Of a stretch of DNA of 64,000 bases, positions 5,212 to 58,880 are shown in pieces. Position 1 is the stretch's first letter. Each line of letters starts with the position of its first letter. Source of the DNA: a virus; the IMG/VR virus record IMGVR_UViG_3300002920_000061, positions 8,496 to 72,495 of that record; one strand, given 5' to 3'. The notes beneath the pieces were generated by a model. That model made no database searches and was not told the origin of the DNA. It saw only the letters and a program-made list of their open reading frames with translations. The position numbers and the translations under genes were made by a program.

Positions 5212-5694
5212 TTATACGCCCTTAGTAGGCCATTGTAACCAGTCAAGTTCTAACGCAATTGCGGCAGAGTTGACGTTAGTTTCTGTAACTGCACCAGAAA
5301 GTTCTTTAACTTGAACTTTAACGCCAAGTTTGGCAATTTCAAACATAACTTTAGTAAGGTCTAAATGAGACGGGTAGAGCTTAGCGGTAGTAGTAGCAGT
5401 AGCATTGTTATACTCATAAGCTAACTCGCACAAGTGAGGTGCGTAAGCTTTTAAATCATTACCAAAAATATCTTTAGATATTGCATCGATTTGTTTGATG
5501 CGGATAAAAATTACAGGGTTTGTTGCTGTTTCAGTTCCGTTATCGGAAAGAACTAGGTAAGGATACCCTTCAGAATCCCTTGCTTCTCGAACCGTGTCAA
5601 CAAAACCTGATGAGGTACCTGCAATACGTACCTTTAGGTTTTCGGCCAACTGGCGAACGAGAGCATCAGCTTTAGCAAGATTTTTTATTGCCAT
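5212..5694 (-). CDS. Head-module protein (possible capsid decoration protein)
   Basis: First gene of the scaffold-MCP operon, strong AAGGAG RBS; function inferred from position only. Confidence 0.45.
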   Translation of the reverse strand: MAIKNLAKADALVRQLAENLKVRIAGTSSGFVDTVREARDSEGYPYLVLSDNGTETATNPVIFIRIKQIDAISKDIFGNDLKAYAPHLCELAYEYNNATATTTAKLYPSHLDLTKVMFEIAKLGVKVQVKELSGAVTETNVNSAAIALELDWLQWPTKGV

Positions 5695-5755
5695 CTTATA
5701 GCTCCTTTTTGTTTGTTATATAGGCAAAGCACCACGCCATGCCTGTTTGATATTG

Positions 5756-5881: not shown

Positions 5882-5932
5882 AGTTTCTATGAAGCTTATA
5901 TATTCTTATTGTAAATCATGATATTATACCCA

Positions 5933-6106
5933 ATAGGTTTTATAACCCTAAGGGTGCTCTAAGGCAGGTCTGCATTATGCCAAGCCCTTTTATAGGTAAA
6001 GGCTCTGGCATTAAGAGTAAGCTCAATGCAAAACCAGCCTTTCTGTGAAGCAGGAATTTATCAGGAGATTTGCCCAGTAATGGGCAAGTTTGCATAGGTA
6101 TGATGG
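5933..6106 (+). ncRNA. Structured RNA element, copy A (tmk leader)
   Basis: Follows TGATATTAT (5919-5927); 5994-6106 is about 80% identical to 38645-38754; ends in an AGAUUUGCCCA-GUAA-UGGGCAAGUUU hairpin. Confidence 0.6.
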
Positions 6107-6780
6107 AACAACAAAAACGAAGCATTATTAAAATTGATTTTGAAGGGATAGATGGCGCAGGGAAAACCACTGGTCTGAAATTCTTTATTAATCTAGCCAA
6201 GGAAATTGGCTTAAATGTGGTAGAAACTAGGGAGGTTGGTAATCCACATATCCCAGTTTGTTTAAAGTTGCGTGAGGTTGTATTAGCTCCTGAAAACAAT
6301 TTATCAGGTGAAGCAATGGAGTGTATCTTCTCTGCTATGAGGATCGAAAATGACGCTTGGTTAAAGCGTTTGGAGAGCACTGACAATAGCCCTGACTTAA
6401 TAGCGTCTGATCGAGGCTGGCTTTCACATTTGGCGTATACAGACCATAATGTCTCTCCTCAATTTACTGAGGCCTTGTATGAGAATTTTATAGGGAACAT
6501 AACAATGCTGCCTGATGCCATAATTTACTTTGACGTAAGTCCTGAAACTTCCCTTAAAAGACGAATAAATCGTGGAAAGTCTATGGATGTCATTGAAACA
6601 AAGGGTATAGAGTTTCAAGATAAAGTGCGTCAATCTTTCCACAAATATATTCAAATATATCAGGATAAGATACCGATCTATGTGGTAGACGCTAATAAAG
6701 ACATAAAAGATGTGAAAGTGCAATTAACGTCTATTTTTATAGAGATTTATAAGGTTTTAGTATTGCCAGAAAAAATATAA
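6100..6780 (+). CDS. tmk: Thymidylate (dTMP) kinase
   Basis: FEGIDGAGKTT P-loop, TREVG, SDRGWLSHLAY, lid SLKRRINR; start probably MMEQQ at 6100 or 6103. Confidence 0.9.
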   Translation: MMEQQKRSIIKIDFEGIDGAGKTTGLKFFINLAKEIGLNVVETREVGNPHIPVCLKLREVVLAPENNLSGEAMECIFSAMRIENDAWLKRLESTDNSPDLIASDRGWLSHLAYTDHNVSPQFTEALYENFIGNITMLPDAIIYFDVSPETSLKRRINRGKSMDVIETKGIEFQDKVRQSFHKYIQIYQDKIPIYVVDANKDIKDVKVQLTSIFIEIYKVLVLPEKI

Positions 6781-6814: not shown

Positions 6815-8245
6815 TTATAATTTCAAAGACCATTTGACCTTACCACAATCCCATATTTTTGAATAGCCTAATGATTTAGCCATTTCTGATTCCGTATTGC
6901 CAATAGCACCTTTTTTCAAAAGATACTTCTTTTGACATGATTGCTTTGATAAGCGTACTGGGTTTCCTAGTTTGAAATATGAATAATCGGGTCCTAACTT
7001 TTCAGGGGTCATGCCTAATTCTCTATAGACGTTCCCCTTAGACCACCTATTGTCAGACCAAGACACTAGATAATCAAAGCCTAATTTGCGTGATTCTATA
7101 ATAATTTGCTTTAAAAGCTTCCCAGTGCCTCCAACAACAGCTTTATCAGCAAAACATACCCTACTCAAAACAGCTTCAGATCTGCTTGGCCTGTGGTGTT
7201 TAGAAATAGTGGCGCAAGCGACAATTTCTCCTTCAAATTCCAAACCTAGGGCAATCAGAAAATTGCACGCACTTTGTAAGTGGTGCTGGTTTAGAAAATC
7301 TATCGCTGTCCTTTTATCTAAAAAGACTGTTTTTGTTTTTCTGGCGTATATTTTAGGCAACAGATTAAGCTTTGCCTTTAAGATAGTTTTTATTTGATTT
7401 TTGCGCTCAAACCATTCGTCTTCAAAAATCGTTATTAGCTGTATGCCATTTTTAGCGCACAAATCATGCTTATCTTTGTGATAATTTTTTCCCTTTTTTT
7501 CTTCGGAATGCCAGTACAATCCGCAATATTCTATTGCAATCTTTTTAGAAGGTATATATATGTCTAGTTCCTGCCCATCTAGGATGGTTCGGTTGTTTTT
7601 TTCAATTTGAAGACCTAAAGATTCAATAAAAAGCGATAGTTCGATCTCTCCCTTAGAGCCAAAAGAAGAGCATCGATAACATTTGTGCCCTTGGTCTAAT
7701 GAATTGTAAGTAGTTTCAAACTCACCATGCTTAGAGCATATAGCAACAAATTTGGTTTTGGTATTTTTTATATTTTGATTATCCTTGATAGTGTAGCCAA
7801 GCTCTTTTGCTTTCTTTAAATAGGCATCGTAACTAAGTTGGTTGGGGTGCCCATTGCGATATCTGCATTTTATGCATCCTGTCGAGTTTCTTAGCTGAAA
7901 AGATGTTTTTTTATGTCTATGGCCACATTGACACGTTACGTCGATTTTCATTTTTTTAGAATGACTTTTCTCGTACTCTTCCTTAGTGGTGTGCACTAAA
8001 AAATGGTTCTTTGCAGCAAGGTCTACTAAAGTGTTGTAGGGTATTTTTTGTAATGCTGCTTTTGCTGCTTTGCAAGAAGGGCAACCGGAATTTCTATGTC
8101 TAAAATTAGACCAGCTGGCTTTGAATTCCCCATGTTTTGTACATAACAACGTTATTTTGTTATCTGGACCTGAGTCTGAGATTAATTTATAGCCACGGCT
8201 TTCTGCAAATATTTGTTTTCTTTCAAAAGAAATTTTTATTCCCAT
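6815..8245 (-). CDS. Second endonuclease-GNAT protein with CxKHGEF zinc-ribbon repeats
   Basis: CTKHGEF..CPSC and CSKHGEF..CYRC; ELDIYIPSKKIAIEYCGLYWH; LITIFEDEW; LSRVCF..GGTGKLL..SWSDNRWSKGNVY; start MGIKIS at 8245. Confidence 0.75.
   Translation of the reverse strand: MGIKISFERKQIFAESRGYKLISDSGPDNKITLLCTKHGEFKASWSNFRHRNSGCPSCKAAKAALQKIPYNTLVDLAAKNHFLVHTTKEEYEKSHSKKMKIDVTCQCGHRHKKTSFQLRNSTGCIKCRYRNGHPNQLSYDAYLKKAKELGYTIKDNQNIKNTKTKFVAICSKHGEFETTYNSLDQGHKCYRCSSFGSKGEIELSLFIESLGLQIEKNNRTILDGQELDIYIPSKKIAIEYCGLYWHSEEKKGKNYHKDKHDLCAKNGIQLITIFEDEWFERKNQIKTILKAKLNLLPKIYARKTKTVFLDKRTAIDFLNQHHLQSACNFLIALGLEFEGEIVACATISKHHRPSRSEAVLSRVCFADKAVVGGTGKLLKQIIIESRKLGFDYLVSWSDNRWSKGNVYRELGMTPEKLGPDYSYFKLGNPVRLSKQSCQKKYLLKKGAIGNTESEMAKSLGYSKIWDCGKVKWSLKL
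6839..6922. repeat. 84-bp dispersed repeat, copy 2
   Basis: 81/84 identical to 1370-1453; a second shared block (7032-7065 vs 1563-1596) is 33/34 identical. Confidence 0.95.
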
Positions 8246-8249
8246 GTAT

Positions 8250-8259
8250 AAAAGATTAT
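8250..8259 (-). promoter_or_regulatory. Late motif ATAATCTTTT, 6 nt before ATG 8245
   Basis: AATCTT-TTATAC-ATG; no Shine-Dalgarno visible. Confidence 0.5.
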
Positions 8260-8273
8260 ATCTTACATGGGCA

Positions 8274-8300
8274 TAAAAATAAAGCCCCAATTAAGGGGCC
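8274..8300 (-). terminator. Intrinsic terminator after the tail tube gene
   Basis: GCCCC/GGGGC stem followed by TTTATTTTT on the minus strand. Confidence 0.75.
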
Positions 8301-15086: not shown

Positions 15087-16070
15087 TTATTTCTTTTTTC
15101 TGTTCCTTTGTTCTCTAAGAATCTCTAGCAACATTTCGATGTTTTCTTTGTCCCATTGCTTAGAAAAGCTCAGTTGTACAGAGTTTTCACTTTTACGAAT
15201 ATGGATCTTTTTGTTCCTATCAGGGCCAAAACAGAGGCATCCATAAAAGCCTTTATCATCGAAGATCTTATTACCACAATCTGGGCAATTTACGGATTCG
15301 CTTTTTTCAATCTTAATTTCATAAGACTGATTCTTAGCTTTTGCTGCCTTTCTATCTAGAAATTGTTTTAATTTTAAAGGCTTCTTTTCAGAAGAAGCCT
15401 TTTGTTCTATAGAAGGCTTTTGTTCTATAGAAGCCTTTTGTTCTATAGAAGGCTTTTGTTCTTCTTCCTTATCTAAATTTTTCTTTTTTTCTAAAGAACT
15501 CAAACTTTCAAGCAGCATCTGAGAAAGTCTCATTCTTACAAGCTCTTCAATAGCTTGTCTTTCTGACAACTTTTCGTCAACTACTTTGGATACTAAGTCT
15601 CGAAGCCTGAGCTTCTCGTCTATAATATCCTGCACTTTATCGAGATCCAAAAGATCGGAATAAGATTGCTTACCTATGCGGTTAAGATCATTTATGTCGT
15701 ATAACTCGAAAGCCGACATAATGACTAGACCGACCCCGGGTAAGGACCGATATTTAAATGAGCTTACAATTTCGCCCTTTTGTCGGATTTCCCCCGAATA
15801 AACATCGTTTGCAAACTTCGTTACATTCAAAAAGGCTTCTGGCTCTATCGGGATTTTGATTTCCTTTCCTTCGTTCTCCTTCATTTCTCCGAGTTCTTTT
15901 TGAAGAAAACTCAGAATTGTTCTTGGTACAATCTGAAGAGCTGTTTTGATTTCTTCAGGGTCTAAGACTGTATTGGTCTTTTTCTTAAACAGCTCTATCT
16001 TGTTCAGCTCCTCAAAGCCGTCTTCTCCTAAAGTCTTTTTAAGAAAAATAACCGCTTGAGGCTTATACAT
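15087..16070 (-). CDS. Head-module protein with C-terminal Zn-finger
   Basis: CPDC..CLC; KSE motifs; KPLKLKQFLDRK; tandem K(P/A)SIEQ repeats. Confidence 0.6.
   Translation of the reverse strand: MYKPQAVIFLKKTLGEDGFEELNKIELFKKKTNTVLDPEEIKTALQIVPRTILSFLQKELGEMKENEGKEIKIPIEPEAFLNVTKFANDVYSGEIRQKGEIVSSFKYRSLPGVGLVIMSAFELYDINDLNRIGKQSYSDLLDLDKVQDIIDEKLRLRDLVSKVVDEKLSERQAIEELVRMRLSQMLLESLSSLEKKKNLDKEEEQKPSIEQKASIEQKPSIEQKASSEKKPLKLKQFLDRKAAKAKNQSYEIKIEKSESVNCPDCGNKIFDDKGFYGCLCFGPDRNKKIHIRKSENSVQLSFSKQWDKENIEMLLEILREQRNRKKK
15393..15462. repeat. 18-bp tandem repeat, about 4 copies (two 36-bp units)
   Basis: AGAAG(C/G)CTTTTGTTCTAT units encoding KPSIEQ/KASIEQ. Confidence 0.95.
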
Positions 16071-21044: not shown

Positions 21045-21134
21045 TGATTTTTTTCCTTAATGCTGCTAGATATTTTTTTAATGCATAATCCACCTCATTA
21101 AGATTACCGCAGAGCGTGTGGCGTAAAACTCTGC

Positions 21135-21163
21135 TTGTAAACTGTATATATCTATGATAATAA
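21135..21163 (+). promoter_or_regulatory. Sigma70-type promoter TTGTAA-17-TAATAA with extended -10 TG
   Basis: Same layout as 38551-38579. Confidence 0.65.
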
Positions 21164-21168
21164 AATTA

Positions 21169-21326
21169 ATAAGTTAGGCCAATATAAACGGCCCATACGA
21201 CGCATTTGGCCAAATTAAAACCTGTGGAGAGTAAGCTATGGCAGCCGAGGTTAAGCAGGTACGAAGTCCATGCCATTAGATATCCCCAGTGATGGGCAGA
21301 TGCATATCTATTACAGAGCATGGAAA
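21169..21326 (+). ncRNA. Structured RNA element, copy C (diverged)
   Basis: Shares AATAAGTTAGGC, AAACCTGTG(A/G)AGAG, AAGCAGG and CCCA-GTGA-TGGG with copy B; stems GGCCAA/UUGGCC, ACCUG/CAGGU, UCCAUGC/GCAUGGA. Confidence 0.5.
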
Positions 21327-21336
21327 GCAATCTTTA
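21327..21336 (+). promoter_or_regulatory. Late motif GCAATCTTTA
   Basis: Upstream of the AGGAG RBS of the plus-strand virion genes. Confidence 0.6.
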
Positions 21337-21358
21337 AGGTACACTTATAGGAGTATAT

Positions 21359-37643: not shown

Positions 37644-38542
37644 TGACCAAAGTTCAGCAAAGAGCCAACAAGATGAAACAGCGTATAAAGAAGCGTTTAA
37701 ACAAGGCAAAGAAAAAAGTCAATTTGATTTATAGAAAAGTCAAAAAAATCTTATTTAGCTTTATCCCCTCTACTGTAAATTACATTATTGTGGCTGTCTT
37801 AGCAATAGCTCTAATAGGTCTTGTTGGTTACATATACTACAAAATCAAAACACCACACCCTTCTAGCTATACCGTAATGGTTACAGATATGGTAGGAAAT
37901 CGTGGTGGTTCTGGTGTTGTTATCAAAAACACGCCAAGTGAGTCTTTCATTTTAACCAACCAACACGTATGTGATGGGGCCCTAAAGATGGGCGGAAAGA
38001 TTAAGCGCACTAACGGAGAATATCATGTAGTGACTGGATATCTTACAGACATAGAGCATGATCTGTGTGTTTTGACTGTTGCTGCGGATCTTGAGCAAAG
38101 TATTCGGATTGCTGATTCAGCTCCTGCTATTTACACAGAAGCAACTATCACTGGTCATCCCGATTTAATGCCAAATATTATCACAAAAGGTCATTTTGGA
38201 GGCCGAGAAATTATCAAGTTAGTAGTTGGCTCTAGAAAATGTACTGATTCTGACCTTACAAACGTAAACATTTCTTTATATTGTATGTTTTTTGGCGCAG
38301 TTCCAGTCACCAGACTCTATGAATCTCAAGTAGTTTCTGCTACAATCATGAGCGGGTCAAGTGGGAGTGCCGTTCTAAATGAGCGCGGTGAGCTTGCAGG
38401 GCTTGTTTTTGCTGGAAACGATAAAGGTCTAAGCTATGCTTACATCGTACCATACGAGGCTATTAAAAACTTTGCAGAAACTGCTATAATTAAAATGTCT
38501 AAGGGAAACAAAAAGAGACCTTGGTTAGAATTAGGGCTTTAA
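37643..38542 (+). CDS. Membrane-anchored trypsin-like serine protease
   Basis: Basic N-terminus, TM YIIVAVLAIALIGLVGYIYY, GSGV, TNQHV (His), DLCVL (Asp), GSSGS (Ser). Confidence 0.85.
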   Translation: MTKVQQRANKMKQRIKKRLNKAKKKVNLIYRKVKKILFSFIPSTVNYIIVAVLAIALIGLVGYIYYKIKTPHPSSYTVMVTDMVGNRGGSGVVIKNTPSESFILTNQHVCDGALKMGGKIKRTNGEYHVVTGYLTDIEHDLCVLTVAADLEQSIRIADSAPAIYTEATITGHPDLMPNIITKGHFGGREIIKLVVGSRKCTDSDLTNVNISLYCMFFGAVPVTRLYESQVVSATIMSGSSGSAVLNERGELAGLVFAGNDKGLSYAYIVPYEAIKNFAETAIIKMSKGNKKRPWLELGL

Positions 38543-38579
38543 CATTTTTCTTGTAAACTATGCAAATCTATGATAGTAT
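38538..38579 (+). promoter_or_regulatory. Promoter TTGTAA-17-TAGTAT (extended -10)
   Basis: 38538-38567 is 29/30 identical to 54261-54290. Confidence 0.75.
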
Positions 38580-38584
38580 AATCA

Positions 38585-38760
38585 ATAAGTTAGGCAGCCA
38601 TAAACGACCTTTATGGCTAATTTAGCCTAATTAAACCTGTGAAGAGGTAAAGTCTCTAGCCTTAAGAGTAATCTAAAGTAAAAACAACCTCTGTGAAGCA
38701 GGAAGTTAGCAGGAATTTTGCTCAGTAATGGGCAGGTTTGCGTAGGTATGACGGGAAATC
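38585..38760 (+). ncRNA. Structured RNA element, copy B
   Basis: UUAGGC-AGCCAUAAA/UUUAUGGCU-GCCUAA hairpin; CCUG/CAGG enclosing AGAGGU/ACCUCU; UGCUCA-GUAA-UGGGCA hairpin. Confidence 0.6.
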
Positions 38761-38763
38761 ATT

Positions 38764-39018
38764 ATGCCATTAGTTAGGTATATTTGTTCAGATCAAAACT
38801 GCAACACATCTTTCCCGATACTTTATCGCTCTGGTAAAGATGTAAAGGATAATGTTCCTTGTAAGAAATGTGGAAAAGAATCCAAAAGGATTTTATCAGC
38901 GCCTACATCTTCATCTAAAATAACAATAGACAACGGCCAACCTAGAGCTGTTGAGGTTAACGCAAATATTATTGAGCTACAAGAGGACAGAATAAAGCCG
39001 CCAAACCGAGGAGACTAA
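38764..39018 (+). CDS. FmdB-like zinc-ribbon protein
   Basis: MP..Y.CSDQNC..PCKKCG..RILSAP. Confidence 0.75.
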   Translation: MPLVRYICSDQNCNTSFPILYRSGKDVKDNVPCKKCGKESKRILSAPTSSSKITIDNGQPRAVEVNANIIELQEDRIKPPNRGD

Positions 39019-54252: not shown

Positions 54253-54260
54253 TGTGGGGT

Positions 54261-54303
54261 TTTAACAGTTTTCTTGTAAACTATGCAAATATTTTGATAT
54301 TAT
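54261..54303 (+). promoter_or_regulatory. Promoter TTGTAA-18-TATTAT (duplicate of 38538-38567)
   Basis: 29/30 identity over the upstream and -35 block; TG extended -10. Confidence 0.75.
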
Positions 54304-56147: not shown

Positions 56148-56702
56148 ATGAGCAATCACTCCATACCCACCAATACATTTAACAAGGACCATATTGAGGT
56201 GGTCCTCCCTGCGTTTCGAGGATTGGATGCGGTTACTATTAACCTAACAGCGCTAAAAGAAGCAGAGCGTAGGCTGATTGAGGCAAAAACAGTGACACCT
56301 TCCACATACACAGAACTTGAGTATGTGATGGGAGAAGCTTATCGAGAGATCAAAAGGAACCTAGCTACAATTGGCTATCAGATTCTTAAAACCGAAAACG
56401 AGCTGGAGAAATCAAAAGCCTCAGCTCTTTTGGATAGGTATCCAGCCTTTTTAGAGGGCAAGCCTTCTAAATTTGATAATGCGGCCATTAGGGATGCTTT
56501 CTTGGCTAGGGATCCTGAGGTGCAGGAAGCAAAGGAAAGACTTGATTCTTTAAAGGCTATTGAAGTTTTTCTAGAGGGTAGAGTGAAAGTTATGGAGAAC
56601 GTTTGTCATTATATGCGTAACGCTATGCGCCTTATTATAAGAAGTGGCGTTCCAACTGATATCTACTATAATCAAATAAACAATGGAGGAAACGATGAGT
56701 AA
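56148..56702 (+). CDS. UvsY-like recombination mediator
   Basis: Long helices with AIRDAFLARDPEV; lies between the SSB and the recombinase. Confidence 0.6.
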   Translation: MSNHSIPTNTFNKDHIEVVLPAFRGLDAVTINLTALKEAERRLIEAKTVTPSTYTELEYVMGEAYREIKRNLATIGYQILKTENELEKSKASALLDRYPAFLEGKPSKFDNAAIRDAFLARDPEVQEAKERLDSLKAIEVFLEGRVKVMENVCHYMRNAMRLIIRSGVPTDIYYNQINNGGNDE

Positions 56703-57750
56703 TAAATGGACCAAAATGCTTAGGCAGTTTGAGGATGTTGTTAGATATGAATACGACGCTTTTGCGCCTGAAAACTGTATTTATACACCAAGTCCTTCGG
56801 TCAATTGGATATTTGCTAACAAATCTATGGGTATTCCCAAAGGTACAGCTACCTTGTTCTTCTCTGAACCTAAGGCAGGTAAATCTTTACTTATCCAAGG
56901 AATTGTGGGCCAGATGCACCAAGACGACCCAGAGGGTATTGCTGTCATTTTTAACACAGAAATGCGAGGTTTTATTCAGTCAGGGCTTTTTAGCTCTATA
57001 GACCAAGACCGTCTTACTGTCTATGACACCAATCGTCCTGAAGAAATTTTTGACCGTATGGAGAGAGATATATTGCCGCTTATACAGGAAGGAATGCCTC
57101 TTAGAATAGTTGCTATCGATTCATTGACCAACATAGCAGGTACTAAGTCTATGTCAGCAGATCGCTCAGTAAACGATCACCTAGTTGGCGACCATGCACT
57201 TACGGTACAGCGAGGGCTACAAAAACTCATGCCTATTATCAGAAACTACAAAATTAACCTTTTTGCCTCTGCTCAAATCAGATCAAACGTGGACGCCAAC
57301 AATCTATACGCCCCTAAAGAGAAGATGGCGGCTAGTTGGGCCGTAAAGCATGCATTTGAATACTTTGTCTCTGTCCGACGCGCAAATGCCGCAGAAGACA
57401 AGGTTGATATAGAAGGTAATAAGTTCGAAGATGATACGATAAAAGACCTGCGCGGAAATAAAGAGATTACAGGACATCGTATAGTTGTGAAAATGGATCA
57501 GTCATCTATAGGAACCGCAGGACGAAGTGGTGTTATAACCCTAGACTATTCCAAAGGTATAATTAATCAGCACGAAGAAATCTTTTACTTGGGCTATAAC
57601 ACTGGCGTTATAAAAAGAGAAGGTACAAGCAATTATGTATTTGGTGATTTAAAAATAAATGGCAAAGCAAACTTTGCTAAACAAATTAAGGAAGATAGCA
57701 CGCTTGCTAGTAGGATTTTAAAAGAGATTCGTAAGCTTGATGAAAAGTAA
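56695..57750 (+). CDS. RecA/UvsX-like recombinase
   Basis: TPSPSVNW..GIPKG..SEPKAGKS, VAIDSLT, AQIR. Confidence 0.88.
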   Translation: MSNKWTKMLRQFEDVVRYEYDAFAPENCIYTPSPSVNWIFANKSMGIPKGTATLFFSEPKAGKSLLIQGIVGQMHQDDPEGIAVIFNTEMRGFIQSGLFSSIDQDRLTVYDTNRPEEIFDRMERDILPLIQEGMPLRIVAIDSLTNIAGTKSMSADRSVNDHLVGDHALTVQRGLQKLMPIIRNYKINLFASAQIRSNVDANNLYAPKEKMAASWAVKHAFEYFVSVRRANAAEDKVDIEGNKFEDDTIKDLRGNKEITGHRIVVKMDQSSIGTAGRSGVITLDYSKGIINQHEEIFYLGYNTGVIKREGTSNYVFGDLKINGKANFAKQIKEDSTLASRILKEIRKLDEK

Positions 57751-58825: not shown

Positions 58826-58850
58826 CTGCTTAAGCACAATAATATATATC

Positions 58851-58880
58851 TTGCAAGGTAGGAAAGAATTTTGATATGAT
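58851..58880 (+). promoter_or_regulatory. Promoter TTGCAA-18-TATGAT (extended -10)
   Basis: Intergenic, upstream of the helicase operon. Confidence 0.65.

Follow-up and report, generated by a model that had tools for sequence, protein, structure and literature searches.

Solo copies of a putative IS607-type TnpB guide-RNA scaffold behind promoter-like sites of a large myovirus

In the usual description, the guide RNA of a TnpB nuclease belongs to the same transposon as the nuclease gene. In the IS607 family, the guide RNA (reRNA or omega RNA) has been shown to consist of a 5' flank of ~50 nt, a core of ~73 nt and a 3' flank of ~60 nt, and the guide of 20 nt comes after this scaffold; the RNA known as RAGATH-18 forms the core of this reRNA (PMC11061315). 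Shine-Dalgarno (SD)-like TAMs, AGGAG and GAGGG, have been reported for IS607 TnpB. A sizeable share of RAGATH-18 RNAs (36%) do not adjoin TnpB, and protein-less elements carrying omega RNAs that need TnpB in trans have been described (PMC10055086).

The window analysed here is a stretch of 64,000 nucleotides (G000:C1:8496-72495) from a 74,152-bp IMG/VR virus record whose completeness is estimated at 46%. The phage is a large myovirus, with genes for tail sheath, portal, GroEL, ribonucleotide reductase and a sigma factor of its own. Three plus-strand stretches of the window had been predicted, from the letters alone, to form an undescribed family of structured RNA. They are named here by position as 6k (5932-6111), 38k (38584-38760) and 21k (21168-21327), corresponding to copies A (5933), B (38585) and C (21169) of the original prediction. 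On the covariance-model and alignment evidence set out below, the family is real and is not undescribed: the three stretches are one intact and two decayed copies of the known guide-RNA scaffold of IS607-type TnpB, with RAGATH-18 as its core. The RNA family is known and solo copies are known in outline; for the stand-alone, promoter-fused arrangement, a literature search found no description of promoter-fused, dispersed solo reRNA genes serving a phage TnpB.

Scaffold family and state of the three copies

Exactly three copies were found in the whole 74-kb record by blastn and a covariance model. Copies 6k and 38k are 85% identical over 6042-6113 / 38690-38761 and 80% identical over 5994-6034 / 38645-38685, and 21k matches 38k at 75% identity over 96 nt (21124-21219 / 38540-38635). 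When each segment was locally aligned and compared with 1000 shuffles, the observed score was reached in 0/1000 for the core and 3' part of 6k/38k and for the 5' part of 21k/38k, in 17/1000 and 5/1000 for the core of 21k, and in 3/1000 and 0/1000 for its 3' part. The colinear similarities are above chance module by module, save for the 5' module of 6k, which shows no relation to 21k or 38k (472/1000 shuffles reach the score). All three copies share one register, in which ATGATA is followed after 8 nt by AATA(A/G)GTT. The original prediction of three colinear copies in the same register behind a TGATAnTAn extended -10 was therefore correct, as direct reading, alignments and shuffles all indicate, and direct reading also recovers two further elements that it described, the CCCA/CUCA-GURA-UGGG hairpin of the copies and the CCUG...CAGG-closed domain of 21k and 38k. 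Comparison of the three copies shows that changes in the GNRA hairpin (C-G to U-G, U-A to U-G) preserve pairing.

At gathering score, no Rfam family matches anywhere in the window. At a relaxed threshold, RF03064 (RAGATH-18) matches 38k at 38636-38704 over its full length (model positions 1-71 of 71; 29.5 bits, E 0.026), which falls below the gathering score of 44.9 bits, and it does not match 6k or 21k. However, RF03064 also leaves five bona fide TnpB-linked members of this subclass unmatched at E<=1 and gives a sixth only 26.7 bits. The Rfam model is too narrow for this subclass, and a sub-threshold score is thus no argument against membership. Such a model misses a whole environmental subclass, so that RNAs of this kind are easily mistaken for new families.

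A pattern scan of IMG/VR for the two conserved strands of the core returned more than 119 loci. Among 115 distinct matches in viral contigs, tblastn placed a TnpB homologue within 1.5 kb upstream of 74, and about 25 were solo, having no TnpB upstream; one subclass of the matches ends GUARGU...GAACGG. In a separate pattern scan of metagenomes, the matches belong mostly to another TnpB family or are chance matches in coding sequence, and only those of the L150/L164/L190/L211 type are relevant here. Two covariance models were built from other viral contigs or a wider sample: R1 from 13 reRNAs of the GUARGU...GAACGG subclass, none of them from the window and the majority located immediately after a TnpB C-terminus in other viral contigs, and R2 from 26 sequences that include short-core variants. 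The consensus of the 13 has a 5' hairpin with an invariant AGUU loop, a k-turn core and two covarying 3'-flank helices; P-a and P-b covary strongly within the family. In the wider family alignment 94.4% of cells pair, compared with 70.4% in shuffles, slid controls collapse, and compensatory change occurs at 21/26 pairs; the family structure covaries. The 5' loop GUU(N) and the tail (N')AAC also covary (GUUC/GAAC, GUUA/UAAC, GCU/AGC), in agreement with the published pseudoknot (PMC11061315).

Run over the window with filters off, R1 matches 38k along the full model (38604-38755) with 61.0 bits and E 3.7e-15; R2 gives 63.1 bits and E about 1e-15. Copy 6k is matched at full length by R1 (22.1 bits, E 1.8e-4) and by the full R2 model over 5952-6111 (29.1 bits, E 2.7e-6). 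Copy 21k receives only a partial match of 8.8-8.9 bits (E about 0.7); it is not recognised on its own, the wider R2 does not rescue it, and its assignment to the family would run solely through its likeness to the other two copies. The three copies, in the order 38k, 6k, 21k, are the top three R1 matches in the whole record. For calibration, L164, a complete IS607 element outside the training set with a resolvase-type TnpA and a TnpB bearing all three Pfam domains, scores 66.8 bits under R1, and other non-training members score 58-111 bits. RAGATH-18 and R1 have no match in the sibling and distant-relative records G001-G005 and G011-G015. A further full-model R1/R2 match at 57319-57496 (+) is weak (9.7-10.5 bits, E 0.2-0.5); it sits within the ORF at 56683-57750, has AGUU as its hairpin loop, and is probably due to chance.

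These scores bear on whether the copies could represent an undescribed class of non-coding RNA, ribozyme or riboswitch. Such a reading could appeal to the lack of any Rfam family at gathering score, and it is barely credible given a full-length, highly significant match to a model made from TnpB-linked guide RNAs, together with the failure of RF03064 on bona fide members. The original prediction had suggested a comparison with known Rfam families; Rfam itself yields no more than the sub-threshold score, and it is the model of TnpB-adjacent guide RNAs that matches decisively. Riboswitch and ribozyme readings have no support; the window has no match to a riboswitch, ribozyme or intron family at gathering score, and the surroundings of the copies have none at E<=10.

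Copy 38k is an intact member with all family features kept, and its three-part layout and sizes, like those of the window copies generally, agree with the published reRNA; it is a complete reRNA-like scaffold and the best preserved of the three. Its 5' hairpin, GGCU-AAUUU-AGCC (38615-38627), aligns in the covariance model with the family hairpin CCGnn-AGUU-nnCGG, and the loop AUUU could pair with AAAU of the tail (38756-38759), as GUUC pairs with GAAC in the family pseudoknot. The RAGATH-18-like core (38636-38704), delimited by the RF03064 match and the R1/R2 alignments, comprises a CCUGU/GCAGG closing helix, a k-turn-like GAAG...UGAAG and inner stems; in the k-turn GAAG replaces GGAG, giving A-A at one sheared pair, and locus L029 shows the same variant. 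In the 3' flank (38705-38752), the R1/R2 alignments place helix P-a (GUUA 38705-38708 with UGAC 38749-38752), the GNRA hairpin UGCUCA-GUAA-UGGGCA (38719-38734) and the conserved GUAGGU (38742-38747). The tail GGGAAAU(C) at 38753-38760 is equivalent to the family tail GGGACGG/GGAACGG when compared with those of L051 and L036; the model ends at 38755, and the end of the scaffold is uncertain by about 6 nt. Altogether 38k keeps 21/27 family-invariant positions and forms 22/26 pairs, the family mean being 24.2 pairs.

The scaffold of 6k is degenerate. It shares homology with 38k over its 3' two-thirds (5994-6111); a different 5' module stands in for the original one, and nothing is left of the 5' strand that forms the core helix and k-turn. 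Of the family-invariant positions 19/27 remain and of the pairs 21/26, and the tail GGAACAA (6105-6111) still has AAC. Copy 21k is strongly diverged. It has the same 5' module as 38k and a core that is short, like that of the L164 type (CCUGUGGAG...AAGCAGG, 21221-21259), in which the 3' GA of the k-turn is lost (UUAAGCAGG); its GUAGGU box is altered. In the MFE fold its 3' domain is fully paired despite sequence divergence, with a helix of UCCAUGC (21267-21273) and GCAUGGA (21318-21324) around the hairpin CCCCA-GUGA-UGGG (21284-21296). Of the k-turn (tandem G-A/A-G beside a 3-nt bulge), 21k is without the 3' GA and 6k without the 5' strand; these two copies are probably decaying or now serve as mRNA leaders only. 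At the right end, the terminal GG is not kept in 6k or 38k, whose tails GGAACAA and GGGAAAU correspond to GGAACGG and GGGACGG of related elements. Read in an alternative register, the ends would be GAUGG, GACGG or CAUGG. The flanks are native gene starts.

Decay of this kind raises the possibility that all three copies are pure relics, in which recombination scattered an IS607-type element, or a fragment of one made up of promoter and reRNA, that is now decaying, and the RNAs have no role other than as tolerated 5' leaders. The loss of a k-turn strand and of family-invariant positions in 6k and 21k, and the loss of the terminal GG, are what this reading would lead one to expect, and relatives carrying the same cassettes were not found by the IMG/VR pattern search. 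Against it, the score of 38k resembles those of bona fide members, pairing in the GNRA hairpin survives the sequence changes, and the 3' domain of 21k remains fully paired. We regard the relic reading as a possibility of some weight, if not the one that we favour; it is taken up again below.

Promoter-like sites, empty sites and gene starts

Each copy lies directly behind a promoter-like site on the plus strand. At 38k (38551-38579), TTGTAA (38551-38556) is separated by a 17-nt spacer from the extended -10 TGATAGTAT (38571-38579); at 21k (21135-21163), TTGTAA (21135-21140) precedes TGATAATAA (21155-21163). The extended -10 box of 6k, TGATATTAT, was read directly at 5919-5927, and the related phage L132 has TATGATATGGTAT at this site, where the element is absent. 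The motif TGATAnTAnA occurs nine times in the window, always on the plus strand, and five of the occurrences are intergenic. The fuller class cTTGYAA-N17-TGATAnTAT precedes 21k, 38k, ordinary genes at 54274-54303 and 58851-58880, and the TnpB gene discussed below. We infer promoter status from these motifs; a generic sigma-70 scan did not flag the sites of the copies, and the class may be read by the phage's own sigma factor. Stretches of this class extend over 54257-54303 and 58840-58880 in the window and 1545-1580 in L004, and 38534-38567 is 94% identical to 54257-54290 over 34 nt. In siblings that have no element, a palindromic box ATGATA-nn-TATCAT stands at the 6k and 21k sites (L132 1290-1310; L135 2548-2565; L139 2540-2560), and this box could act as an operator as well as a -10 element.

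In sibling phages all three sites are without the element, and blastn of the three elements against all sibling loci gave no match. Judged by this comparison, all three copies are insertions relative to related phages, in keeping with the link to mobile elements that had been suggested. At the 38k site of L005 and L008, whose Rad50 is 71-74% identical, the protease gene is ~45 codons longer and abuts the Zn-ribbon gene, with neither promoter nor element between them. At the 21k site, nine siblings have an 88-nt intergenic region in which TATGATATnnTATCAT is followed by CAATCTTTAAGG. Homology with these element-free loci (L133-L141) resumes at 21328, and the native box CAATCTTTAAGG at 21328-21339 is, by this alignment, the right limit of the 21k insertion. 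In the one sibling compared at the 6k site, tmk has an ATG of its own, with a -10-like box, a leader and a purine-rich SD. In the window the start of tmk lies instead within the element, and its first eight codons are new. More widely, the 38k region has no blastn match among 50,697 phage records, and the IMG/VR pattern search for close copies (core end plus GNRA hairpin) found none beyond the record itself.

The genes that follow the copies are unrelated: tmk after 6k, a virion gene after 21k and the Zn-ribbon/Rad50 genes after 38k. The idea that the RNA is a leader of unrelated genes holds as to position; transcription into these genes is presumed from the promoter-like sites. The thymidylate kinase gene tmk (6100-6780, +; Pfam PF02223, 4.4e-23) has its ATG at 6100, inside the 3' end of 6k as originally noted, and its start codon and first ~8 codons (MMEQQKRS) fall within the end of the scaffold and the guide position; the sibling tmk aligns from residue 10 only. 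In 38k the predicted guide position, if TnpB uses the RNA, is 38761-38780 by the family architecture and spans the start codon (38764) of the Zn-ribbon gene, which is also overlapped by a 9-codon uORF at 38748-38777 that the original prediction had read correctly. Copy 21k is set apart from the gene start by a native late-promoter box and about 30 nt.

These overlaps invite the explanation that the copies are cis-acting translational leaders independent of TnpB, whose fold either masks or frees the start codon. The AUG of tmk (6100-6102) is indeed part of the 3' strand of P-a in 6k, and the uORF of 38k overlaps the real start. We nevertheless consider such leaders very unlikely: there is no conservation of a ligand type and no Rfam riboswitch match, the late-promoter box and spacer intervene in 21k, and siblings express the same genes without the element.

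Positions next to start codons are also seen in canonical elements of this class, whose right end ...AACGG is followed within 0-10 nt by the next gene's start codon (L023, L059, L068, L072, L092, L111). This is as expected if an SD-like TAM (AGGAG/GAGGG) directs insertion between SD and ATG. A sibling carrying a guide-matching target with a TAM was not found among those compared, which at 65-86% identity are too divergent, and the 11 matches to a 16-mer of the 38k guide position in IMG/VR all lie in unrelated contexts and are due to chance. In L111 (4633-4830, -), the tnpB frame stays open across the entire RAGATH-18 domain as far as the conserved GUAAGU box, where it stops; at this one locus the box may double as the tnpB stop codon.

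TnpB in the same record and the proposed mode of action

No tnpB adjoins any of the copies by Pfam TNB/OrfB_IS605 searches or by tblastn of the record; the promoter stands there instead. The record does, however, end inside a TnpB gene. The Pfam TNB/OrfB_IS605 searches missed it, as only the N-terminus is present, and tblastn with 17 reRNA-linked TnpB proteins found it at G000:73698-74150 (L004:1618-2076), 1.2 kb past the window. The 153 aa before the contig end are 50% identical to residues 23-180 of the L064 TnpB (E 5e-41, tblastn) and 38-44% identical to the TnpBs of L164, L120 and L072; they match Pfam HTH_OrfB_IS605 (30 bits) and ISFba1 TnpB (PDB 8IAZ, E 1.4e-10), and the RuvC part falls beyond the contig end. 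The L064 reRNA is of the same class, with the GGCUCUGGC...GAAACCAGCC core seen in 6k and 38k. A TnpB of the cognate lineage, represented by this gene start, is encoded in the same genome as the copies, at a distance of 26-59 kb from them.

Several other genes were considered as TnpB and rejected. The minus-strand genes at 1346-2893 and 6815-8290, which looked inserted, are not TnpB. They share 90-95% identical stretches near their 3' ends (1370-1480 / 6839-6949 and 1556-1596 / 7025-7065) and differ elsewhere; one has HTH and GNAT matches and the other weak REase-like matches, the gene at 6815-8290 lies directly after tmk, and both may be mobile or duplicated. Weak TNB matches in four siblings are due to the Zn-ribbon of a 324-aa virion or scaffold-like protein. 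The Zn-ribbon of the sibling orthologue of the 327-aa gene at 15087-16070 (-) gives such false weak TnpB-TNB matches, and this gene of the window contains four tandem 18-nt units at 15377-15466. Finally, the 361-aa TnpB of the distant relatives G003 and G005 is of another type, with 24% identity to the IS607 one and no R1-type RNA.

Directly upstream of the TnpB promoter, at about 1510-1557 of L004, is a relic of a second TnpB C-terminus (VHDRDLNAAINLKKVA), which points to repeated insertion and decay of TnpB elements in this phage and so adds to the case for pure relics. That case is weakened in turn by two features, namely that all three copies are joined to the promoter start site in the same way and that a TnpB gene with the same promoter class is present. 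If relics are all that remain, the locus records ordinary mobile-element decay.

We lean, if only slightly, towards the reading that the copies are, or formerly were, stand-alone guide-RNA genes that serve the phage's TnpB in trans. Their ancestor would be the guide-RNA scaffold of an IS607-type TnpB element, with the RNA part since separated from tnpB. The RNA would begin within the canonical 5' hairpin, in its loop (AGUUAGG), which is where the closest full element has the end of tnpB, and would have been fused there to the start site of the phage promoter class that also drives the phage's TnpB gene. Each copy is an insertion that separates a promoter from the start of a gene unrelated to it; because it lies directly before the gene start, its guide position is the 5' end of the neighbouring gene. 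Copy 38k would be transcribed together with TnpB from the same class of promoter, and TnpB would bind its RNA in trans and trim it to the scaffold and a guide of about 16-20 nt. The complex could cut TAM-bearing, cassette-free alleles of the locus, either in co-infecting siblings or in the genome itself after loss of the cassette, and recombinational repair would copy the cassette back, amounting to homing or retention without a linked nuclease gene. The phage's own locus would be safe, since the scaffold and not a TAM is 5' of the target.

A bolder extension, which we put forward only tentatively, is that a single phage TnpB works with an array-less multi-guide system, made up of several guide-RNA genes that are dispersed and each have a promoter of their own, to give RNA-guided intronless homing at several loci. 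It is similarly speculative that each guide, fixed to the start of its neighbouring gene, would direct the cutting of cassette-free sibling alleles and so drive in the cassettes together with the flanking genes.

The nuclease might also be sought in the host, the phage RNAs loading onto or soaking up a host IS607 TnpB as guides or decoys. In a collection of genomes from 185,579 species, the closest scaffold subtype, that of L164 (GGAAGUWAG...CCAGUGAUGGG...GUAAGUCUUAUGUAACGG), is found only in the cyanobacterium Hormoscilla, in several TnpB-linked copies, which would suit this explanation. Against it, the phage has the start of a TnpB gene of its own, and IS607 TnpB is not known to act in defence; we judge the host reading quite unlikely.

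Comparison with known systems

The reRNA of IS607 TnpB, as in ISFba1 (Ren et al., Cell Res 2024, PMC11061315; PDB 8IAZ; RF03064), has the same three-part scaffold as the window copies. Common to both are a 5' hairpin, a CCUG/CAGG-closed, k-turn-like core, a 3' flank with two covarying helices and GUARGU, a tail that can pair with the 5' loop, a length of ~150-180 nt and a guide position directly 3' of the scaffold. Unlike that reRNA, the window copies neither lie downstream of tnpB nor overlap it, a phage promoter replaces the 5' strand of the canonical hairpin, the terminal GG is missing, the Rfam score is below gathering and two of the copies are degenerate.

The closest scaffold subtype is the L164 type of IS607 element (resolvase TnpA, TnpB and reRNA), known from metagenomes and Hormoscilla genomes, which shares with the copies the AGUUAGG 5' motif, GGAAGUWAG, the CCAGUGAUGGG hairpin and the 3' end GUAAGU...AUG...GG. 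Elements of this type are fully autonomous, with a right end ...GUAACGG followed by variable flanks, whereas the window copies are without both genes. In the Hormoscilla/L164 type, the last codons of tnpB, ...AGT TAG, fall in the loop of the 5' hairpin. This is precisely the point at which the window copies start (AAUA-AGUUAGG), which suggests that the RNA part was cut away from tnpB at the end of the gene. In a Hormoscilla MAG (L223, about 5529-5720, -), a solo reRNA follows ~60 nt of a tnpB 3' end and a TATAAT box, and would be a bacterial counterpart of the promoter-fused solo copies.

Detached, promoter-fused scaffolds at several loci would, if the proposed action is correct, mark a move from a transposon with a single fixed guide towards an effector with several guides, which is the logic behind the rise of CRISPR-Cas12. 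They would also give phages an RNA-guided counterpart to the marker exclusion and homing of the T4 Seg/Mob endonucleases.

Guide scaffolds without a linked nuclease gene are also the hallmark of the PATE-like protein-less IS200/IS605 elements (Meers et al. 2023, PMC10055086). Those elements have retained both transposon ends and depend on a Y1 TnpA for their mobility, whereas the window copies belong to the serine-recombinase family IS607 and are fused to phage promoters. No PATE- or MITE-type left end is recognisable at the window copies, whose left junctions are phage promoters of the kind that also serve ordinary genes, and the copies are 75-85% identical and mosaic rather than near-identical. 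A phage-borne TnpB-family protein with a separately expressed guide has likewise been described for the nuclease-dead TnpB proteins (TldR) of prophages (Wiegand et al. 2024, cited in PMC13622181). TldR guides match host promoters (fliC, oppA) and the proteins are without RuvC residues; in the present phage, the guide positions are the starts of its own genes.
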